A stretch of DNA of 64,000 nt, from IMG/VR virus record IMGVR_UViG_2030936005_000025, positions 200,204 through 264,203 of that record. One strand, 5' to 3'. Source of the DNA: a virus. Lineage: Duplodnaviria; Caudoviricetes. The notes beneath the pieces were generated by a model. It ran no database searches. It worked only from the letters and a program-made list of their open reading frames with translations, and was not told where the DNA came from. This document shows, piece by piece, positions 699 through 54,625 of this stretch (positions are counted from its first letter, which is position 1; the number at the start of each line of letters is the position of its first letter). Position numbers and translations under genes: made by a program.

Positions 699-774
699 GC
701 TTCCATAGTTCAGTCGGCAGAACGGTCGCCTGTTAAGCGATATGTCGCAGGTTCGAGTCCTGCTGGAAGCGCCA
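699..774 (+). tRNA. trnN: tRNA-Asn (GTT)
   Basis: 76 nt; acceptor GCTTCCA/TGGAAGC; anticodon arm GTCGC-CTGTTAA-GCGAT; T-loop TTCGAGT; discriminator G and encoded CCA. Confidence 0.97.
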
Positions 775-800
775 ATTTACATTCACATCTGCCAGTTACT

Positions 801-904
801 GCGGTCGTGTCTTCAGAGGCACCGTAAATGTATGATAGTGGATGATTAGTTTCTACCACTGGATATCTTTACAATAGTTAGGTTAAATCCCTAAGGCCGC
901 GCCA
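801..904 (+). ncRNA. tRNA-like RNA A (long irregular helix instead of an anticodon arm)
   Basis: Acceptor GCGGTC(801-806)/GGCCGC(895-900) then G-CCA; hairpin GTGTCT-TCAG-AGGCAC; long arm GTAAA…AGTGG/CCACT…TTTAC; T-arm TTAGG-TTAAATC-CCTAA. Confidence 0.7.
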
Positions 905-913
905 GATTTATAT

Positions 914-1047
914 GAGGGTCGTGTCGTGGGACACAAGTTCAGTTATGCTCTAGCGATCTAAGATCGTGAACCCGTTAGCGGTGAAGATAGACAACTCTAC
1001 TTCAACTGTACTGAATGATAAGCCGAGTTCGACTCTCGGGATCCTCT
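914..1047 (+). ncRNA. tRNA-like RNA B (multibranched domain instead of an anticodon arm)
   Basis: Acceptor GAGGGTC(914-920)/GATCCTC(1040-1046); hairpin GTGTC-GTGG-GACAC; helix GTTCAGT/ACTGAAT enclosing sub-hairpins; T-arm CCGAG-TTCGACT-CTCGG; no encoded CCA. Confidence 0.75.
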
Positions 1048-1120
1048 ATCAACTTCATAATGTCATGAAGATCCGTACCTACCGTTTTGGTTTTTGGTAC
1101 CCAATCCATGAGGAAGTAAT

Positions 1121-1444
1121 ATGTCAAATTTAGAAAAAGAGTTAGAATCAAGATATTTCGCTCGCATTCCAGATGTTGGTGAGAGAACTAACAATGATCC
1201 AGCTTATTTGATGTCAAGTAATGATGTCCTTAAACTGATCAAAGCTATGTACCAGGATGGTTGTGACGCATCTGGCGACAGTCTTGAACCTGAACGTTTT
1301 AAACACCCCATCATTCTGGATCGATCATCGGGTAAAGAAGTTATCACCAGTTATATGGTCCAGGGGATTATCAAAGAAGCCACCGTAAATCACGGATGGT
1401 CTGATGTTAAGCTTTATGGTAAACAGCTTCTGTTTATTAAGTAA
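1121..1444 (+). CDS. Hypothetical protein
   Basis: 107-aa ORF with GAGGAAG ribosome-binding site; followed by a terminator. Confidence 0.8.
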   Translation: MSNLEKELESRYFARIPDVGERTNNDPAYLMSSNDVLKLIKAMYQDGCDASGDSLEPERFKHPIILDRSSGKEVITSYMVQGIIKEATVNHGWSDVKLYGKQLLFIK

Positions 1445-1453
1445 AATTAAATG

Positions 1454-1492
1454 AAGAGAGAAGGGGTCGGTTGATCCTTTCTCTTTTTGTTT
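1454..1492 (+). terminator. Intrinsic terminator
   Basis: Hairpin AAGAGAGAAGGGGTC-GGTT-GATCCTTTCTCTT followed directly by a T-rich run. Confidence 0.8.
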
Positions 1493-1506
1493 GTCTGGAG
1501 ATATTT

Positions 1507-1617
1507 ATGAGTATCTTAAAGAAGCTCCATAATTGGTTTTATAAAGACATGGTTTATTCTGTTTCTGCCGATGCTTGGTTTTACCAAGAAGGCGCAACAG
1601 GTGAATGGGTGGATTAA
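1507..1617 (+). CDS. Small hypothetical protein, 36 aa (MSILKKLHNWFYKDMVYSVSADAWFYQEGATGEWVD); not in ORF track
   Basis: GGAG site at 1497-1500; TAA stop abuts the ATG of the next gene. Confidence 0.65.
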   Translation: MSILKKLHNWFYKDMVYSVSADAWFYQEGATGEWVD

Positions 1618-1857
1618 ATGAAAGATCAGATACCTGAAGGTTTTGTTCCAGATAACTTTAAGTTCATCAGTAACCAACCTCATTTAACAGTCAGTGGTTT
1701 TACTATGGTTAATCCCTTGGCCACCAAACTGTTAGTTGAAGTAGAGCGTCAATTAAAATCACCGCGCAATGCGATGCAAAAGAAAACAAGATCACCTTTA
1801 GATGTTCCTTCTTCTGGAATGTTCTATTGGTCACCTCTCAATTCAGTAGGAAAGTAA
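1618..1857 (+). CDS. Hypothetical protein
   Basis: 79-aa ORF packed between neighbours with TAA-ATG junctions. Confidence 0.65.
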   Translation: MKDQIPEGFVPDNFKFISNQPHLTVSGFTMVNPLATKLLVEVERQLKSPRNAMQKKTRSPLDVPSSGMFYWSPLNSVGK

Positions 1858-2112
1858 ATGAAAGTTGTGATTTACGGAAAACCTGCGTGCGTGTTCTGTA
1901 CTCGTGCGAAGGACTTAGTTAAGGCCAAAGGAATCGATCATGAGTATGTCGATATCATCGAAACCGGCATGGGTCGTGAAGGCCTGGAAGAAATTGTGGG
2001 AGGTCCTGTTACGACCGTTCCTCAAATCTTTGTCGATAATGTTCATATTGGTGGTTATACTGATCTGGTATCTCACCTTGTCAAGTCTGACGAATCCGAA
2101 GTAAAGGTGTAA
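1858..2112 (+). CDS. grx: Glutaredoxin (phage NrdC/Grx-like)
   Basis: YGKPACVFC active site; TVPQIFV…HIGGYTDL glutaredoxin signature. Confidence 0.95.
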   Translation: MKVVIYGKPACVFCTRAKDLVKAKGIDHEYVDIIETGMGREGLEEIVGGPVTTVPQIFVDNVHIGGYTDLVSHLVKSDESEVKV

Positions 2113-2114
2113 TT

Positions 2115-2252
2115 ATGGATTTTGATTTGGATGATCTGAACCTTGAAGGTTTGGATGAAGCTGAAGCTCGTAACAATGAGCGCCAGGAAGCGGCTGATAA
2201 AGCTGCGGCAGCGGTTGGCGATGAAGCTGACTGCGAAGGTTGTAAAATCTAA
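2115..2252 (+). CDS. 45-aa acidic peptide ending in CxxC (…DEADCEGCKI), resembling a ribonucleotide reductase alpha C-terminal tail; not in ORF track
   Basis: Translated by hand: MDFDLDDLNLEGLDEAEARNNERQEAADKAAAAVGDEADCEGCKI; starts 2 nt after the grx stop with AAGGTG upstream. Confidence 0.8.
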   Translation: MDFDLDDLNLEGLDEAEARNNERQEAADKAAAAVGDEADCEGCKI

Positions 2253-2278
2253 TTTTGATAAGGCGATAAGTTTTGACC

Positions 2279-2416
2279 ATGAAAAAGAAAAAGACTTCTT
2301 TGAAAGAAAAGATCCGTCGCCAGAATCAGAATGCTGAGAAGACCTTATACCTCGATGGCGCTGGTGATACTTTCACGATGACCAAAACCAAAGACGGCTA
2401 TAAGTTAAACGTGTAG
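2279..2416 (+). CDS. 45-aa basic peptide (MKKKKTSLKEKIRRQNQNAEK…); not in ORF track
   Basis: Open frame from ATG 2279 to TAG 2414-2416; AAGG upstream; stop lies inside a GCAA-loop hairpin. Confidence 0.6.
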   Translation: MKKKKTSLKEKIRRQNQNAEKTLYLDGAGDTFTMTKTKDGYKLNV

Positions 2417-2432
2417 GGTAGCAATACCCTAC
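2413..2432 (+). terminator. Hairpin with GCAA tetraloop (possible terminator or processing/stability element)
   Basis: GTAGGGTA-GCAA-TACCCTAC; weak T-tract downstream. Confidence 0.5.
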
Positions 2433-2478
2433 TCCTATATTTCATCTCCAACCACTACTATGACCGAGAGAGAAGAAT

Positions 2479-3087
2479 ATGAAACTTAAGTTGATTACTG
2501 TTGATAAACGTACCTACGCAATTAAGACTCGATATATCGAGCTGAATAGTGATGCCAGTGTGCATTACCGCTCCCCTATCACTGGAAAATTCCCAACAGG
2601 GGATGACGATACAATTACTGATGTGCTCAGGTCAGCTCCACCTACTGCCGTTGCTGTTGTGTATTCTTGTAACAGAGAACCAATCTATATTGAAAAGCAT
2701 GACGGTGCGTATGTTATCTCTGAAGCTAAGACCATTGAGATTGTCAATCAGCCAGTGGACTTCGATGATGTTGATTTCTGGGTTAACACCAAAGGCGAGG
2801 AAGAGTGGAAAAAGGTTGGACTAGGATATTACATTGAGTATTCTAGAGTACACCTGAATGACAGTTACCAGGTCGCTCAAAAGGATTTCAATTTAAATGA
2901 AAAAATGCAAGGGATAGTCCACCTGCCAAACGGTCAACTTGGTAAAGCAGTAAGATGGTATCTCAATGGATCGAGGACTTGGCTTAGAGTCACTGAGGGG
3001 ATGAGTGAGGATATTCTTTCTAAACTGACCGTGATCACTATCCTTGATGGAAAAAATCCTAATGACCCAGGGTATAAACTTCCATAA
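2479..3087 (+). CDS. Hypothetical protein
   Basis: 202-aa ORF with GAGAGAG purine-rich leader; no family recognised. Confidence 0.8.
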   Translation: MKLKLITVDKRTYAIKTRYIELNSDASVHYRSPITGKFPTGDDDTITDVLRSAPPTAVAVVYSCNREPIYIEKHDGAYVISEAKTIEIVNQPVDFDDVDFWVNTKGEEEWKKVGLGYYIEYSRVHLNDSYQVAQKDFNLNEKMQGIVHLPNGQLGKAVRWYLNGSRTWLRVTEGMSEDILSKLTVITILDGKNPNDPGYKLP

Positions 3088-3096
3088 GTATATTAT
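3082..3096 (+). promoter_or_regulatory. Phage early-type promoter upstream of the large ncRNA
   Basis: CCA-TAAG-TATATTAT matches the TCA-N4-[T/G]ATAT[T/C]AT motif found upstream of six leftward cassettes in this window. Confidence 0.65.
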
Positions 3097-3100
3097 GTAA

Positions 3101-3955
3101 TTCAATCGAGTGTAACTGATCGCTGTTCTGCGGAATAGTATGGTTTCATCACCCCGTTATATTCGACTGTAAGACCCTCGTTATCCAGGTGTGGGTACAT
3201 AACGAGGGCAGTGTCCGGTGGGTTGCACTACCGGACTAAATCCAAGAGTGAACGGCGGCTTAAGCCCGCTACTGTAAGTAGCTCTTGGTTGGGTGATATT
3301 ATGTACTTTCACTGCATAATGTCCTCTGGCGGTGGTTGGACTTTTGGCGTTCTTCGCCATTGTCTGACAGATCACCGCACCCCTTTGTACCAGTGGCTGA
3401 TATCCAAGTAGAGCTTTAATTATACCTGACGGATAGCGCTCACAGTGTTTCAACCATTGGTACATCCTCTTGAGGATCTTGAACGAAAACCGTAGGGTAA
3501 CCGCCGAGCACATTGCGTTGCATTCAAGGCGGCTTAAGCAGGGGACTAGGTAGTCTTCCTGGGTGATATCAAGATCCTCAAACCTACTACTCTCCGTGAT
3601 ATGGAGTAGACACCCCGTGGTGGGGGCATCGTAACCATCTGATGAGTCCGCGATGAGAAATAAAGAGACGAAACGGGTTCTGTCGTTCGGAGACTCCAAC
3701 TCCTGACAGATCCGTCATGAATCGCTCTGCCTTAACTGTGAGGAGCAGCCTCAATCTACGATTCTAGAGGAACAGCAGCGTTACTGAAAGATCCACGGCA
3801 AATGGATCGAAGCAGATAACAAACAGTCCGCTCCCTTTGCCAGGGGAGAAGTTGTTAAAACCAAGAGGTGTAGACAGCCTTTAGATCACCGTGGTAGTAA
3901 AATGGGGTTGCTCCCAGAGTAGCTATCAGAAAGTGGTCTTTAGAGTGGCTATACA
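3101..3955 (+). ncRNA. Large, highly structured non-coding RNA (about 850 nt), family unknown
   Basis: No credible ORF; more than 15 hand-paired helices including 3175-3184/3199-3208 (10 bp), 3213-3219/3230-3236, 3386-3396/3454-3464 (11 bp) and 3470-3482/3569-3581 (13 bp perfect); own promoter; downstream hairpin. Ends are approximate. Confidence 0.75.
3613..3677 (+). ncRNA. Hammerhead ribozyme fold (type III), GUG triplet variant
   Basis: CTGATGA (3639-3645) and GAAA (3670-3673) cores; stems I, II and III all pair; 5-bp loop I/loop II complementarity CATCG/CGATG. Confidence 0.65.
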
Positions 3956-4005
3956 AAAAAAAATAACAGATCGAGATCCTCTACTCTCCTAACGGAGAGT
4001 AGAGG
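3955..4005 (-). terminator. Hairpin terminator with displaced T9 tract
   Basis: 12-bp stem CCTCTACTCTCC-TAAC-GGAGAGTAGAGG (3978-4005); A9 at 3955-3963, 14 nt away. Confidence 0.7.
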
Positions 4006-4011
4006 TAATCT

Positions 4012-4437
4012 TTATGCTGTCAAATAAAGTTCAGCCCAGATTTTAAATAAACGTTTCATGTCATTTGCGATCAATCCTAATGCCCGTGTATTTTTCAAGT
4101 TACCGGCATACAACCAAAGTTCACACTCAGGTTCACCTACGATCACAATGTCATTGAAATACATGACCAGAGATTTGGATGAGGTAGCAATGAGATCTTT
4201 GCGATTAACTGCAAAGCAGAATTCATTGGATTCAAGAATCACATTGTAGAAATAAGTGAACAGAGCTGCATCAAAACTGTCTGGTTCTAATTCATAAGTC
4301 TCAGCTAACTTAATGCTCTCCTCTTCATTAATAGCTAATTTAGTCAGAGAGTCGTTACCGGTGATAGCAGACAGGTTGCGTTTGAAGATGGTTTCCATGA
4401 TAGCTTTCCTTAATAAGTTAAGAACATTATTGTTCAT
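4012..4437 (-). CDS. Hypothetical protein (early cassette; similar to 7975..8400)
   Basis: 141-aa ORF bracketed by the promoter motif and a terminator. Confidence 0.8.
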   Translation of the reverse strand: MNNNVLNLLRKAIMETIFKRNLSAITGNDSLTKLAINEEESIKLAETYELEPDSFDAALFTYFYNVILESNEFCFAVNRKDLIATSSKSLVMYFNDIVIVGEPECELWLYAGNLKNTRALGLIANDMKRLFKIWAELYLTA

Positions 4438-52411: not shown

Positions 52412-54625
52412 ATGTCCGTTACCGTCGACTATAAAGACAGGAACATTGTTTCACGTTCATTCCGTTTAATGAGTGAAGGGGTTAAGGATCCAGAGAAGGC
52501 ACTGATCCGTTCTGACTATGACCTCTATACCAGTTTCTTCTCCACTGCGATAGGGGACAACAAGTTTGTTAACCCCTTACCGGGTTATAGCCGTAATACC
52601 GATCCATATCCAAAGCCCGCAATGGAAAACAAAATGGGTAACATGGGTCGCTATTACAAACGTATCCATCAGGATAACGCCATGATGGCAACCTTTACTG
52701 CCGGCGTTCCTGAGTTCACCGGGATGATCACTTTCATCCTGAACATGTTTGACTACTCTGCTTCTATTATGGCGAATAAAGGACGTGCTCCGACTTGGGC
52801 GTTCTATATTGGTCAGGCAGCAGGGGCGATTGCATTCTGGCCAGCCCAGATCATCGCGACCTCGTTTAACTTCTTTGAGTTCTTGTCAGGTACCCCGAAG
52901 AACAAGTGGTATTATTGCAAACCTACTATGGGGATGTACTTTACCGCTGCTCAGGGTATCTTCAACGACTTGATGATTGCAGCCGGTTATGCGTTATCCG
53001 TTTTGCCTTCTGATCGTCAAGAACAGGGTAACACAAAAGCAGGAGATCGTGACTACGGTACCGGCGGTACCAAAGGTTATACTTCTGACACTGCCATGGC
53101 TAAGAGTAACATCTCTTACATGCACTCTTTGTTCCCCGATGCAATTAACCCAGATGGTACCATCGACATTCTGAAGATCTCTACACGAGGTGTGCGTAAG
53201 TTCCGTCACTTCATGAAGAAGGTCAAAGACTTAGATGACCAATTTGGAATCAGTACGGTTGAGCAGAAAGATACGGCGATTGAGAACATCCTCAATAACC
53301 TGGTTACAGACAGTGGGTTCGTCAATGCCAACGGCGGTACCACAGCGGGAAGTAATACGCGTGACTATCTCCTAAAGGAATTGAAGACAGTCGGTAAAGC
53401 CCGTGGGATGGATGAGATTAACTATCCTGAAGTGGCTTCTGCTTATACCAGTGCTGATGCTGGTCAGAACGTTAAACCTGTGGGTGCTGAATCACAAGCA
53501 ACCGGTGCGGTTGATGGTTCTGCTTATATTGCAGGCTATCAGGATAAGATCAAAGCAACCAACACGGAAGCTTTCGGTTTAGACGGTGGGACCAACACCA
53601 GTAGTACAACGCAGTCTTCTCCTCAGCTCTCTGGTACTGAACCAACAACCATCAGCAGTGTCTCGGATGTTGATGAGGACTCCTGGTTAGGTCAGATTGG
53701 TACGCTGTTGATGGACGGGTTCTACGGTGGCTTGGATGGGGTTACGTTCCGTACAGAGGGTGTGGGTTCGGTTAGTGACTCCTTCAGTAACAGTACCACC
53801 AGTTCTGCGATCGCGTCTACCTTTAACTCTACGGTGACTGCGGTTCAGGACTTTAAGTTCAATATTGGTGGTGGTCAAACGGGTATCGGGATTGTTGATG
53901 AATTCGTCAACGGGATTAAAGATGCCGTAGCAGGCGTTGCAGCAGGTTCTGTTATTGGTAACGTACCTTTAGCATTGCTCGGTAACTCTAAAGTTGAGAT
54001 TCCAGATCACTGGGAAGATTCCAGTACGAACCTTCATAGTGAGTCATTCAGTTTCTACTTTGAAGCGCCTTATGCGCATCCGTATTCCATTGCGACCAAT
54101 ATCTTCTTACCGCTGTCATTATTGATGCCGTTCATTGTTCCATTCTCCACAGGTGGTTCAACGTACACTGCTCCGTTCCTGGTCAAAGTGTTCAGTCGTG
54201 GTAAATCCATTATCCGTACCGGTATTGTTCAGAACGCCAGTTTTGAATTCGGTAGCGGGCCATTAGGTTGGACCACGGATATGAAACCACGTAACTTGCG
54301 TGTGAACCTGACAGTAACCGATCTGGATAAAGTGATGTCGGTTCCAATCAGCCGTGTAACAAACCCACTGGATCTGTTGAACATCGCAGGTCAGTCTTCT
54401 CGTTACTTAGGAGACGTGGGCAAGTACAACGACTGGGTGAACCGTACGGCTGGTATTGACTACCTTGACACCGTGTTACGTTATAACGACCTTAACCGTC
54501 GTCTGACACGTTTCACGACCGATGCCAAGAACATGTTCAAACCAGCAACCATTGCCGGTGTAGTCAACGACTCCATCGTGGGTGACGTGGCACGTATCTT
54601 TACAGGTCGTCCATTGAACCGATAA
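52412..54625 (+). CDS. Tail-tip/baseplate protein (phiKZ gp182-like, by synteny)
   Basis: 737 aa directly after the gp181-like gene. Confidence 0.7.
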   Translation: MSVTVDYKDRNIVSRSFRLMSEGVKDPEKALIRSDYDLYTSFFSTAIGDNKFVNPLPGYSRNTDPYPKPAMENKMGNMGRYYKRIHQDNAMMATFTAGVPEFTGMITFILNMFDYSASIMANKGRAPTWAFYIGQAAGAIAFWPAQIIATSFNFFEFLSGTPKNKWYYCKPTMGMYFTAAQGIFNDLMIAAGYALSVLPSDRQEQGNTKAGDRDYGTGGTKGYTSDTAMAKSNISYMHSLFPDAINPDGTIDILKISTRGVRKFRHFMKKVKDLDDQFGISTVEQKDTAIENILNNLVTDSGFVNANGGTTAGSNTRDYLLKELKTVGKARGMDEINYPEVASAYTSADAGQNVKPVGAESQATGAVDGSAYIAGYQDKIKATNTEAFGLDGGTNTSSTTQSSPQLSGTEPTTISSVSDVDEDSWLGQIGTLLMDGFYGGLDGVTFRTEGVGSVSDSFSNSTTSSAIASTFNSTVTAVQDFKFNIGGGQTGIGIVDEFVNGIKDAVAGVAAGSVIGNVPLALLGNSKVEIPDHWEDSSTNLHSESFSFYFEAPYAHPYSIATNIFLPLSLLMPFIVPFSTGGSTYTAPFLVKVFSRGKSIIRTGIVQNASFEFGSGPLGWTTDMKPRNLRVNLTVTDLDKVMSVPISRVTNPLDLLNIAGQSSRYLGDVGKYNDWVNRTAGIDYLDTVLRYNDLNRRLTRFTTDAKNMFKPATIAGVVNDSIVGDVARIFTGRPLNR

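Follow-up and report, generated by a model that had tools for sequence, protein, structure and literature searches.

The 3.3-kb stretch between positions 699 and 4005 of a 64,000-nucleotide (nt) viral sequence raises the question of whether RNAs and small genes that lie side by side in a phage genome belong to one co-inherited module. The sequence (here called the window, meaning the whole 64-kb stretch of DNA that was analyzed) covers positions 200,204 to 264,203 of the IMG/VR record IMGVR_UViG_2030936005_000025 (Duplodnaviria; Caudoviricetes) and forms the last 64 kb of this 264,203-base-pair (bp) virus record. The original prediction had listed eight parts in the stretch, namely, a transfer RNA for asparagine (tRNA-Asn), two tRNA mimics, a glutaredoxin, a CxxC peptide, a basic peptide, a protein of 202 amino acids (aa), and a giant structured RNA, and had proposed that they form one module in which the 202-aa protein or the basic peptide binds the large RNA. 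All of the listed parts were found on the + strand and where they had been placed, as judged by tRNA prediction, covariation, a PF00462 match, open reading frames (ORFs), and conservation. Our analysis suggests that the stretch is probably a variable small-RNA and small-gene region that one clade of jumbo phages carries upstream of its virion and packaging genes, and that within this region the glutaredoxin and a large, seemingly self-cutting RNA are constant and the remaining parts are lineage-specific extras.

The closest relatives of the virus by DNA search were jumbo phages with genomes of 250 to 285 kb. Erwinia phage AH04 was the nearest, with 83 to 86% DNA identity across parts of the 3.3-kb stretch. 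The other related jumbo phages were Kosakonia phage Kc263, Pantoea phage Survivor, Serratia phages Yubaba and Sureiya, Klebsiella phage N1M2, Edwardsiella phage pEt-SU, Shewanella phage SXP01, and Pseudomonas phage OBP, and the uncultured relatives consisted of four contigs of 260 to 271 kb and one short fragment. OBP is listed among the chimallin-encoding, nucleus-forming phages (Prichard et al., bioRxiv 10.1101/2023.02.24.529968), and we infer that the source phage of the window also forms a nucleus. The stretch was compared part by part across 12 genomes, the window included, with a flank of 4 to 6 kb for each relative; L007, L008, and L009 denote loci within this set, of which the L007 locus starts short and the L009 locus ends short. 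All 12 genomes showed the same order of a tRNA or tRNA-like cluster, the glutaredoxin, the large RNA, a DUF7484 virion gene, a gene for a 490-aa protein, and a thymidylate kinase gene, the last three being present in all 11 loci reached by the flank. Within these flanks, and with relocated copies elsewhere being possible, the glutaredoxin and the large RNA with its hammerhead were present in 12 of the 12 genomes, tRNA-Asn in 8, the first tRNA-shaped RNA in 7, and the CxxC peptide in 6. By the same comparison, the second tRNA-shaped RNA and the basic peptide were each present in 5 genomes and the 202-aa protein in only 4.

The proposal of a co-inherited module was therefore borne out only for its backbone: the glutaredoxin and the large RNA occur together throughout in a constant order, whereas most of the other parts, including the tRNA mimics, the peptides, and the 202-aa ORF, vary in their presence independently of one another, which is the outcome that the original prediction had named as refuting it. 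A single module of eight parts would fit their location on one strand within 3.3 kb, and the five closest genomes (the window, AH04, L008, L007, and L009) do share the peptides, and in four of them the 202-aa ORF is also shared and lies immediately before the RNA. The composition of the basic peptide could moreover suit RNA binding. However, within the flanks compared, seven of the 12 RNA-bearing genomes lack the basic peptide and eight lack the 202-aa protein, which means that neither can be an obligatory partner of the RNA, and the mimics are found in only seven and five genomes. The 202-aa protein retains only 23 to 39% identity among close phages whose large RNAs are about 86% identical and has no relatives elsewhere. 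Between the peptides on one side and the 202-aa ORF and RNA on the other lies a terminator-like hairpin. We consider it very unlikely that the eight parts form one module with either protein as the RNA-binding component. Judged by sequence comparison, individual lineages have added the tRNA-shaped RNAs, the peptides, and the 202-aa ORF to the same region, and these parts do not make up one machine; a search for partners of the large RNA should not begin from the 202-aa or basic-peptide genes.

The large RNA itself (positions 3088 to 4005, + strand) was fully upheld as a structured, conserved, and noncoding element. Its homologues comprised 14 sequences ranging from 750 to 1,100 nt, with a length of about 900 nt in the window. 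The GC content of the RNA was 0.47 to 0.52, compared with about 0.40 in its surroundings, and its predicted minimum free energy was -312.8 kcal/mol, compared with -264 ± 8.7 kcal/mol for shuffled sequences (z = -5.5). No ORF was conserved among the homologues on either strand. We aligned the interval from the glutaredoxin (or the gene following it) to the DUF7484 virion gene for 12 sequences and observed invariant blocks lying between helices whose two strands change together. RNAalifold predicted about 35 helices and about 180 pairs on this MAFFT alignment, although single helices outside the hammerhead may be wrong, and about 90 base pairs of the RNA overall carried compensatory changes, exceeding the controls.

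Two folded domains were distinguished in the large RNA. The 5' domain (3088 to 3625, + strand) is the conserved core of the family: its 111 predicted pairs were 87% paired and 57 of them showed compensatory change, against a maximum of 42 in 300 shuffles and only 16 to 31 in controls slid by one to three columns. The 3' domain (3717 to 3965, + strand; about 250 nt) contained 47 predicted pairs, which were 91% paired, with compensatory change in 21 (maximum in shuffles, 15), a count that exceeded every shuffle and every slid control. Peripheral parts varied among the homologues: the RNAs of the window and L009 lack an internal 5'-domain subdomain of about 150 nt found in the others, and the whole 3' domain is missing in Survivor, pEt-SU, and SXP01. 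The RNA gene ends with an intrinsic-terminator-like hairpin (3978 to 4005, + strand) that has a 12-bp stem with 7 GC pairs, and a counterpart, whose sequence covaries, was found at the 3' end of every full-length aligned homologue.

Neither the large RNA of the window nor the longer Yubaba homologue matched any family in Rfam 15, at gathering scores or at E values up to 10, and the large RNA is therefore not GOLLD, ROOL, an intron, RNase P, or another curated family. A search of the literature on hammerheads together with jumbo phages, Chimalliviridae, or phiKZ yielded no description of it. Few natural RNAs are so large and so elaborately folded; they include the ribosomal RNAs, RNase P, the group I and group II introns, OLE, GOLLD, and ROOL, and each of them has taught new biochemistry. 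The large RNA described here would be a further family, uncatalogued in Rfam.

The region might alternatively be no RNA gene in its own right but an extended untranslated leader or trailer belonging to a neighboring gene, or a decayed coding region. It does start directly after the 202-aa ORF, which stops at 3087, and no recognizable promoter intervenes; hypothetical proteins have been annotated there in Kc263 and N1M2, and the window contains a 172-aa frame on the minus strand. Yet the upstream neighbor differs between genomes, being the 202-aa ORF, the glutaredoxin, or tRNA-Met, and a terminator belonging to the RNA always precedes the next gene. Neither strand has a conserved open frame, and the substitutions are compensatory and preserve helices. 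These observations make a leader, a trailer, or a decayed coding region scarcely credible as an explanation.

The annotated hypothetical proteins within the large RNA are QYN80068.1 of Kc263 (L002 4513-4704) and N1M2_252, on the minus strand (L025 4479-4991), both of which are probably misannotations. The 172-aa minus-strand frame of the window, at 3181 to 3699, is not conserved. The large RNA of Yubaba, Sureiya, and N1M2 begins a few nucleotides after a tRNA-Met (L004 4257-4337; L025 4424-4505), and in these phages the 5' end of the RNA could come from tRNA 3' processing. As for candidate promoters, an AT-rich motif at 3088 to 3101 had 7 matches in the window versus 6.7 expected by chance, and sigma-70-like sites in the region were at chance level. 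At the opposite end, a 141-aa ORF on the minus strand (4012 to 4437), with no family match, converges on the terminator hairpin of the large RNA, and the hairpin at 3978 to 4005 may act bidirectionally. This ORF is also found in L007 and L009 and, at another location, in SXP01.

The most informative feature of the stretch, which the original prediction had missed, is a type I hammerhead embedded in the large RNA at positions 3626 to 3719 of the + strand, with a complete core, stems I to III, and a 5-bp pseudoknot. The core consists of CUGAUGA at 3639 to 3645 and GAAA at 3670 to 3673. Stem I pairs 3636-3638 with 3717-3719, stem II pairs 3646-3649 with 3666-3669, and the long stem III pairs 3673-3683 with 3705-3715. 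The pseudoknot joins CAUCG (3627 to 3631) to CGAUG (3651 to 3655) in loop II. The cleavage triplet GUC lies at 3714 to 3716, and on the basis of the sequence we predict that the RNA is cut after C3716, between this nucleotide and A3717. Stem I is open whereas stems II and III are capped, which gives the topology of type I.

Comparison of the homologues argued strongly for this fold. The core nucleotides C3 to A9, G12 to A14, the A15.1-U16.1 pair (A3673-U3715), and C17 (C3716) were invariant in 11 aligned sequences, and the core was likewise present in SXP01 and N1M2. Over the type I fold, 90.2% of cells were paired and 16 of 27 pairs showed two-sided change, with none of 500 shuffles equaling this result and slid controls reaching 27 to 44% pairing. 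Each of stems I, II, and III contained at least one covarying pair. Stem I occurs as CAU/AUG, ACAU/AUGU, CUAU/AUAG, and CACC/GGUG and as CAG/CUG in SXP01; stem II occurs as GUCC/GGAC or GUCU/AGAC, its fourth pair being C-G or U-A; and the variants of outer stem III include UCUGUC/GACAGA and UUUCAC/GUGAAA. The pseudoknot was 98% paired, with covariation at three of its five pairs (CAUCG/CGAUG, CGUCG/CGACG, CCCG/CGGG, UGUCG/CGACA, and GUUCG/CGAAC), and was recovered independently by RNAalifold.

The element resembles the natural pseudoknot hammerheads of type I (RF00163, clan CL00010; PMC3088659) in its core, its three stems, its GUC triplet, and its phage origin, as well as in having stems II and III capped, stem I open, and a 5-bp pseudoknot that connects the stem I side with loop II. 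About 40% of natural hammerheads use a pseudoknot of this kind, which is required for rapid cleavage at physiological (0.5 mM) Mg2+, and hammerheads have been found in phage intergenic regions (Perreault et al. 2011, PMC3088659). Unlike those, which stand alone or flank genes, the hammerhead described here lies about 540 nt deep in a structured RNA of about 900 nt, with stem I closed by two large domains. It also differs in having a long loop II of about 16 nt and a long stem III, which spans about 40 nt and includes an inner hairpin as well as a conserved UCCA loop. No other hammerhead was found in the 264-kb genome, which has this single copy only; a 19-bit match at 52595 was rejected, as it lies in coding sequence and lacks the core. 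A relaxed hammerhead-core pattern matched 22 further IMG/VR contigs of 15 to 150 kb (L031-L052), all without the large RNA, and these matches are, from their sequence context, taken to be ordinary stand-alone phage hammerheads.

A hammerhead-like core need not cleave, and the motif could be purely structural or could belong to a type III fold with a G at position 17, in which case the RNA would stay one uncut molecule. The alternative type III helix would pair CCCGU (3614 to 3618) with ACGGG (3673 to 3677) and would present a GUG triplet. Such helices can be drawn in the window and its closest relatives, and the best Rfam alignment, at 19.4 bits, takes the type III form. The type III fold was nonetheless rejected by covariation, since its positions were 68.1% paired versus 66.9% in shuffles and its alternative stem III showed no two-sided change; the type I fold, by comparison, was 90.2% paired with 16 covarying pairs. 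The catalytic nucleotides and the GUC triplet have stayed invariant while the flanking helices diverged, and this pattern is difficult to account for unless catalysis has been under selection. We therefore regard an uncleaving RNA as unlikely and favor a type I hammerhead that cuts.

Under this preferred interpretation, the large RNA would be transcribed rightward and would end at the strong terminator hairpin. The pseudoknot, formed between loop II and the strand 5' of stem I, would hold the hammerhead in an active state, and the transcript would be cut after C3716. The 5' product, of about 620 to 630 nt, would comprise the conserved 5' domain and the ribozyme core and would end in a 2',3'-cyclic phosphate, in keeping with the observation that the core of a type I hammerhead stays with the 2',3'-cyclic phosphate product (PMC3088659). 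The 3' product, with a 5'-OH, would carry the second folded domain of about 250 nt and the terminator here and in most relatives, and only a short tail and the terminator in Survivor, pEt-SU, and SXP01. In these three genomes the terminator lies within a few tens of nucleotides after the cut site, which suggests that what the hammerhead may do in every member is to leave the 5' domain with a defined 3' end, freed of the terminator. What the sequences show is that the RNAs are present, conserved, and covarying, that the hammerhead core is complete, and which genomes carry which parts; that the RNA is transcribed and cuts itself in vivo, how its ends would look chemically, and what the products might do we infer. 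The embedded ribozyme offers an experimental handle, as the cut site, the product sizes, and inactivating mutations are predictable, and the large RNA occurs in the cultured phages AH04, OBP, N1M2, Yubaba, Kc263, pEt-SU, SXP01, and Survivor.

Several points weigh against a constant backbone of glutaredoxin and self-processing RNA. No Rfam hammerhead model reaches its cutoff, the best being Hammerhead_3 with 19.4 bits versus 48.5, a match that is a type III alignment and appears only when 161 nt are searched alone and not in 5-kb or 64-kb searches; the long inserts in loop II and stem III probably explain this subthreshold score. Stem I has only 3 to 4 bp, and the fourth pair of stem II is mismatched in the window and AH04. 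No recognizable promoter marks the 5' end of the large RNA, whose placement is tentative. Neither RtcB nor an Rnl2-type RNA ligase was found in the genome, and nothing points to a use of the cut ends; religation or circularization thus gains no support. A search of the genome for a T4 Rnl1-type ligase also gave no match, but its positive control gave none either. The fixed order of glutaredoxin and RNA, moreover, may simply reflect general synteny of the region.

What the matured RNA might do is suggested mainly by comparison with GOLLD (RF01998) and ROOL (RF03087). These are likewise large, ornate RNAs of phages and prophages that look protein free, neighbor tRNA islands, and combine a conserved core with variable peripheral domains; the large RNA of the window lies within 2.4 kb of tRNA-Asn. 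The original prediction had drawn attention to this position beside a phage tRNA cluster, and it is one that the large RNA indeed shares with GOLLD and ROOL (bioRxiv 10.1101/2024.12.08.627333). In contrast to both, the large RNA holds what its sequence indicates to be a self-cleaving-type ribozyme and is restricted to a single jumbo-phage clade, and the GOLLD and ROOL covariance models do not match the window RNA or its Yubaba homologue even at E values up to 10. We know of no self-cleaving ribozyme described for GOLLD or ROOL. By analogy, our guess is that the matured RNA might be a GOLLD/ROOL-like structural or scaffold RNA, acting alone or with a conserved factor encoded outside the stretch.

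GOLLD and ROOL form RNA-only multimers, and GOLLD env-38 lies downstream of tRNA-Met (Kretsch et al., bioRxiv 10.1101/2024.12.08.627333). An RNA-only cage or ring might similarly arise by self-assembly of the matured 5' domain, or of both pieces, with the hammerhead providing uniform ends. The GOLLD/ROOL-like size, the ornate conserved structure, the phage origin, and the tRNA-island position would all be consistent with this, as would the location of the RNA directly downstream of tRNA-Met in Yubaba and N1M2, the coming and going of peripheral domains, as in GOLLD, and the finding of no co-inherited protein partner in the neighborhood. On the other hand, the RNA resembles GOLLD and ROOL neither in sequence nor by covariance model, and multimerization cannot be read from sequence, which leaves analogy as the sole basis. 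We hold such assembly to be possible but doubtful. A wider proposal is that the large RNA founds a class of self-processing, two-piece ribozyme RNAs of nucleus-forming jumbo phages, in which the 5' domain would gate the hammerhead as a sensor that sets when the two pieces part, or the matured RNA, with its cyclic-phosphate end and catalytic core, would act in trans on other RNAs or assemble into an RNA-only particle, with the tRNA-shaped RNAs as substrates or partners; we think that this combination is unlikely to hold.

As far as its sequence distribution indicates, the large RNA is confined to one clade of jumbo phages with Gram-negative hosts. In phage EL, the same slot contained neither a hammerhead nor any similarity to the large RNA. 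In the Aeromonas phages AhC3_1, D6, and ZPAH34, the corresponding slot, which precedes the DUF7484 gene, holds an unannotated gap that is about 790 nt long and raised in GC content (L027 3214-4006; L028 2386-3183; L029 3227-4003). The three gaps have a single 80-nt block in common and contain no hammerhead and no similarity to the large RNA, and they may represent a different RNA.

At the upstream end of the stretch, the cluster begins with a canonical tRNA-Asn (GTT anticodon; 699 to 774, + strand), which was called by ARAGORN and matched Rfam RF00005 with 71 bits. Orthologues were identified in Kc263, Survivor, Yubaba, OBP, L009, N1M2, and SXP01, making 8 of the 12 genomes with the window; none was found in AH04, L008, or pEt-SU, and the L007 locus begins too near this point to decide the matter. 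Where the window has tRNA-Asn, the clusters of AH04, pEt-SU, and L007 begin with unusually long tRNAs of 80 to 86 nt, as called by ARAGORN (Cys-GCA, Tyr-GTA, and Cys-ACA; L001 2110-2195; L006 5749-5834; L007 800-879), and these may be further noncanonical tRNA-like RNAs.

The two mimics that follow tRNA-Asn, at 800 to 904 (element 1) and 914 to 1046 (element 2) on the + strand, were delimited by covariation, by alignment (of six genomes for element 1), and by predicted folds, with RNAalifold used for element 1. Both adopt a four-way junction with a 7-bp acceptor-like stem, an abutting hairpin of 5 to 6 bp, a greatly enlarged arm where the anticodon arm would be, and a T-like arm. ARAGORN called neither of them, and a 291-nt search (780 to 1070) gave no Rfam tRNA match even at E values up to 10; they are therefore best described as tRNA-shaped RNAs and not as tRNAs. 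Both lack a canonical D loop and a 7-nt anticodon loop on a 5-bp stem, the anticodon position being filled by a domain of about 50 nt in element 1 and about 80 nt in element 2.

In element 1, the acceptor stem (800-806/895-901) is followed by CCA, and the D-like hairpin has 5 to 6 bp and no 8/9 linker. Its anticodon position is occupied by a long three-part arm with an invariant 14-nt apical loop, AUGAUUAGUUUCUA (842 to 855), which was unchanged in six diverged phages while the surrounding stems covaried; no complement of this loop was found in the window. The fold was 96.3% paired, with two-sided change in 18 of 36 pairs (0 of 500 shuffles; slid controls, 38 to 50%). The acceptor stem was 100% paired with covariation at four of seven pairs, and three of five T-arm pairs covaried. 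Element 1 was present in the window, AH04, L007, SXP01, N1M2, and Survivor and as a reduced copy in pEt-SU. The genomes with element 1 or element 2 were identified with covariance models made for this analysis, whose E values are rough.

Element 2 has an acceptor stem at 914-920/1040-1046, a GUGUC/GACAC hairpin, and a domain of three hairpins that takes the anticodon position; its T arm (CCGAG-UUCGACU-CUCGG) looks canonical. Here 96.9% of cells were paired and 14 of 46 pairs showed two-sided change (0 of 500 shuffles), with covariation at two of the seven acceptor pairs. It was found in the window, L007, L009, pEt-SU, and Survivor, and it is about 94% identical to the pEt-SU copy despite the otherwise diverged genomes. 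The 'species 1 and 2' RNAs of phage T4 are stable tRNA-like RNAs in a phage tRNA cluster. Elements 1 and 2 are like such phage tRNA-cluster mimics in following a genuine tRNA and in having a 7-bp acceptor-like stem and a T-like arm, but they differ in lacking the 8/9 linker and in having a domain of 50 to 80 nt in place of the anticodon arm. They extend the poorly understood group of phage tRNA look-alikes, which bears on tRNA-targeting defense and counter-defense.

The constant protein-coding member of the stretch is the glutaredoxin (1858 to 2112, + strand), which matched PF00462 with an E value of 1.5e-16 (60.8 bits versus a cutoff of 22.9) as well as phrog_22. Its active site is CVFC at residues 11 to 14, and its identity across the 12 genomes was 45 to 71%. 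Two nucleotides after its stop codon, in a different frame, the ATG of the CxxC peptide begins. This acidic peptide of 45 aa (2115 to 2252, + strand; phrog_10239, 8.5e-9) ends in DCEGCKI, is found in the AH04 subclade, and had no sequence match to any PDB chain. Survivor encodes a single 164-aa protein (L003 3328-3822) in which residues 33 to 118 match the glutaredoxin and residues 120 to 164 match the CxxC peptide (47% identity, E = 1e-10). The fusion suggests that the two ORFs of the window are the split form of one protein and that the small CxxC ORF should be annotated as the detached C-terminal tail of the glutaredoxin. At the level of sequence it implies that the glutaredoxin and the CxxC peptide would be functionally linked, the only such pair in the stretch. 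The glutaredoxin shares its fold signature, CxxC site, and small size with the NrdC/GrxA-type phage glutaredoxins/thioredoxins (PF00462, phrog_22), whose usual client is ribonucleotide reductase. It differs from them in having a separate acidic CxxC tail peptide and in a genome that lacks a class I/II ribonucleotide reductase large subunit: none (PF02867) was found in the 264 kb, which makes it probable that the redox client is a protein of the host or something else.

The basic peptide (45 aa, MKKKKTSLKEKIRRQ...; 2279 to 2416, + strand), which had no Pfam or PHROG match, was 82 to 91% identical in AH04, L008, L007, and L009. Its ORF is followed by the terminator-like hairpin mentioned above (2413 to 2432, + strand), which was detected by a consensus scan and has an 8-bp stem and a T-rich tail. 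A third terminator-like hairpin was seen by eye near 1450 to 1490, and the stretch is not obviously one transcription unit.

The fast-evolving 202-aa ORF (2479 to 3087, + strand) had weak homologues in three close relatives, with 23% identity to AH04_13 and 39% and 35% identity to ORFs of L008 and L009, respectively, and the protein diverges far faster than the adjacent RNA. It had no Pfam match and no tblastn match in phage records, and among 5.8 billion proteins it matched only itself. Its AlphaFold model was unusable, with a predicted local distance difference test score (pLDDT) of 38.

Three further ORFs lie on the + strand between the tRNA-shaped RNAs and the glutaredoxin. The 107-aa ORF (1121 to 1444) had no Pfam match and weak partial PHROG matches, with homologues only in L009 and SXP01 (35% identity). 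The 36-aa ORF (1507 to 1617) and the 79-aa ORF (1618 to 1857) were patchy in distribution, the former occurring also in L008 and the latter in L009, OBP, and, as a partial match, pEt-SU.

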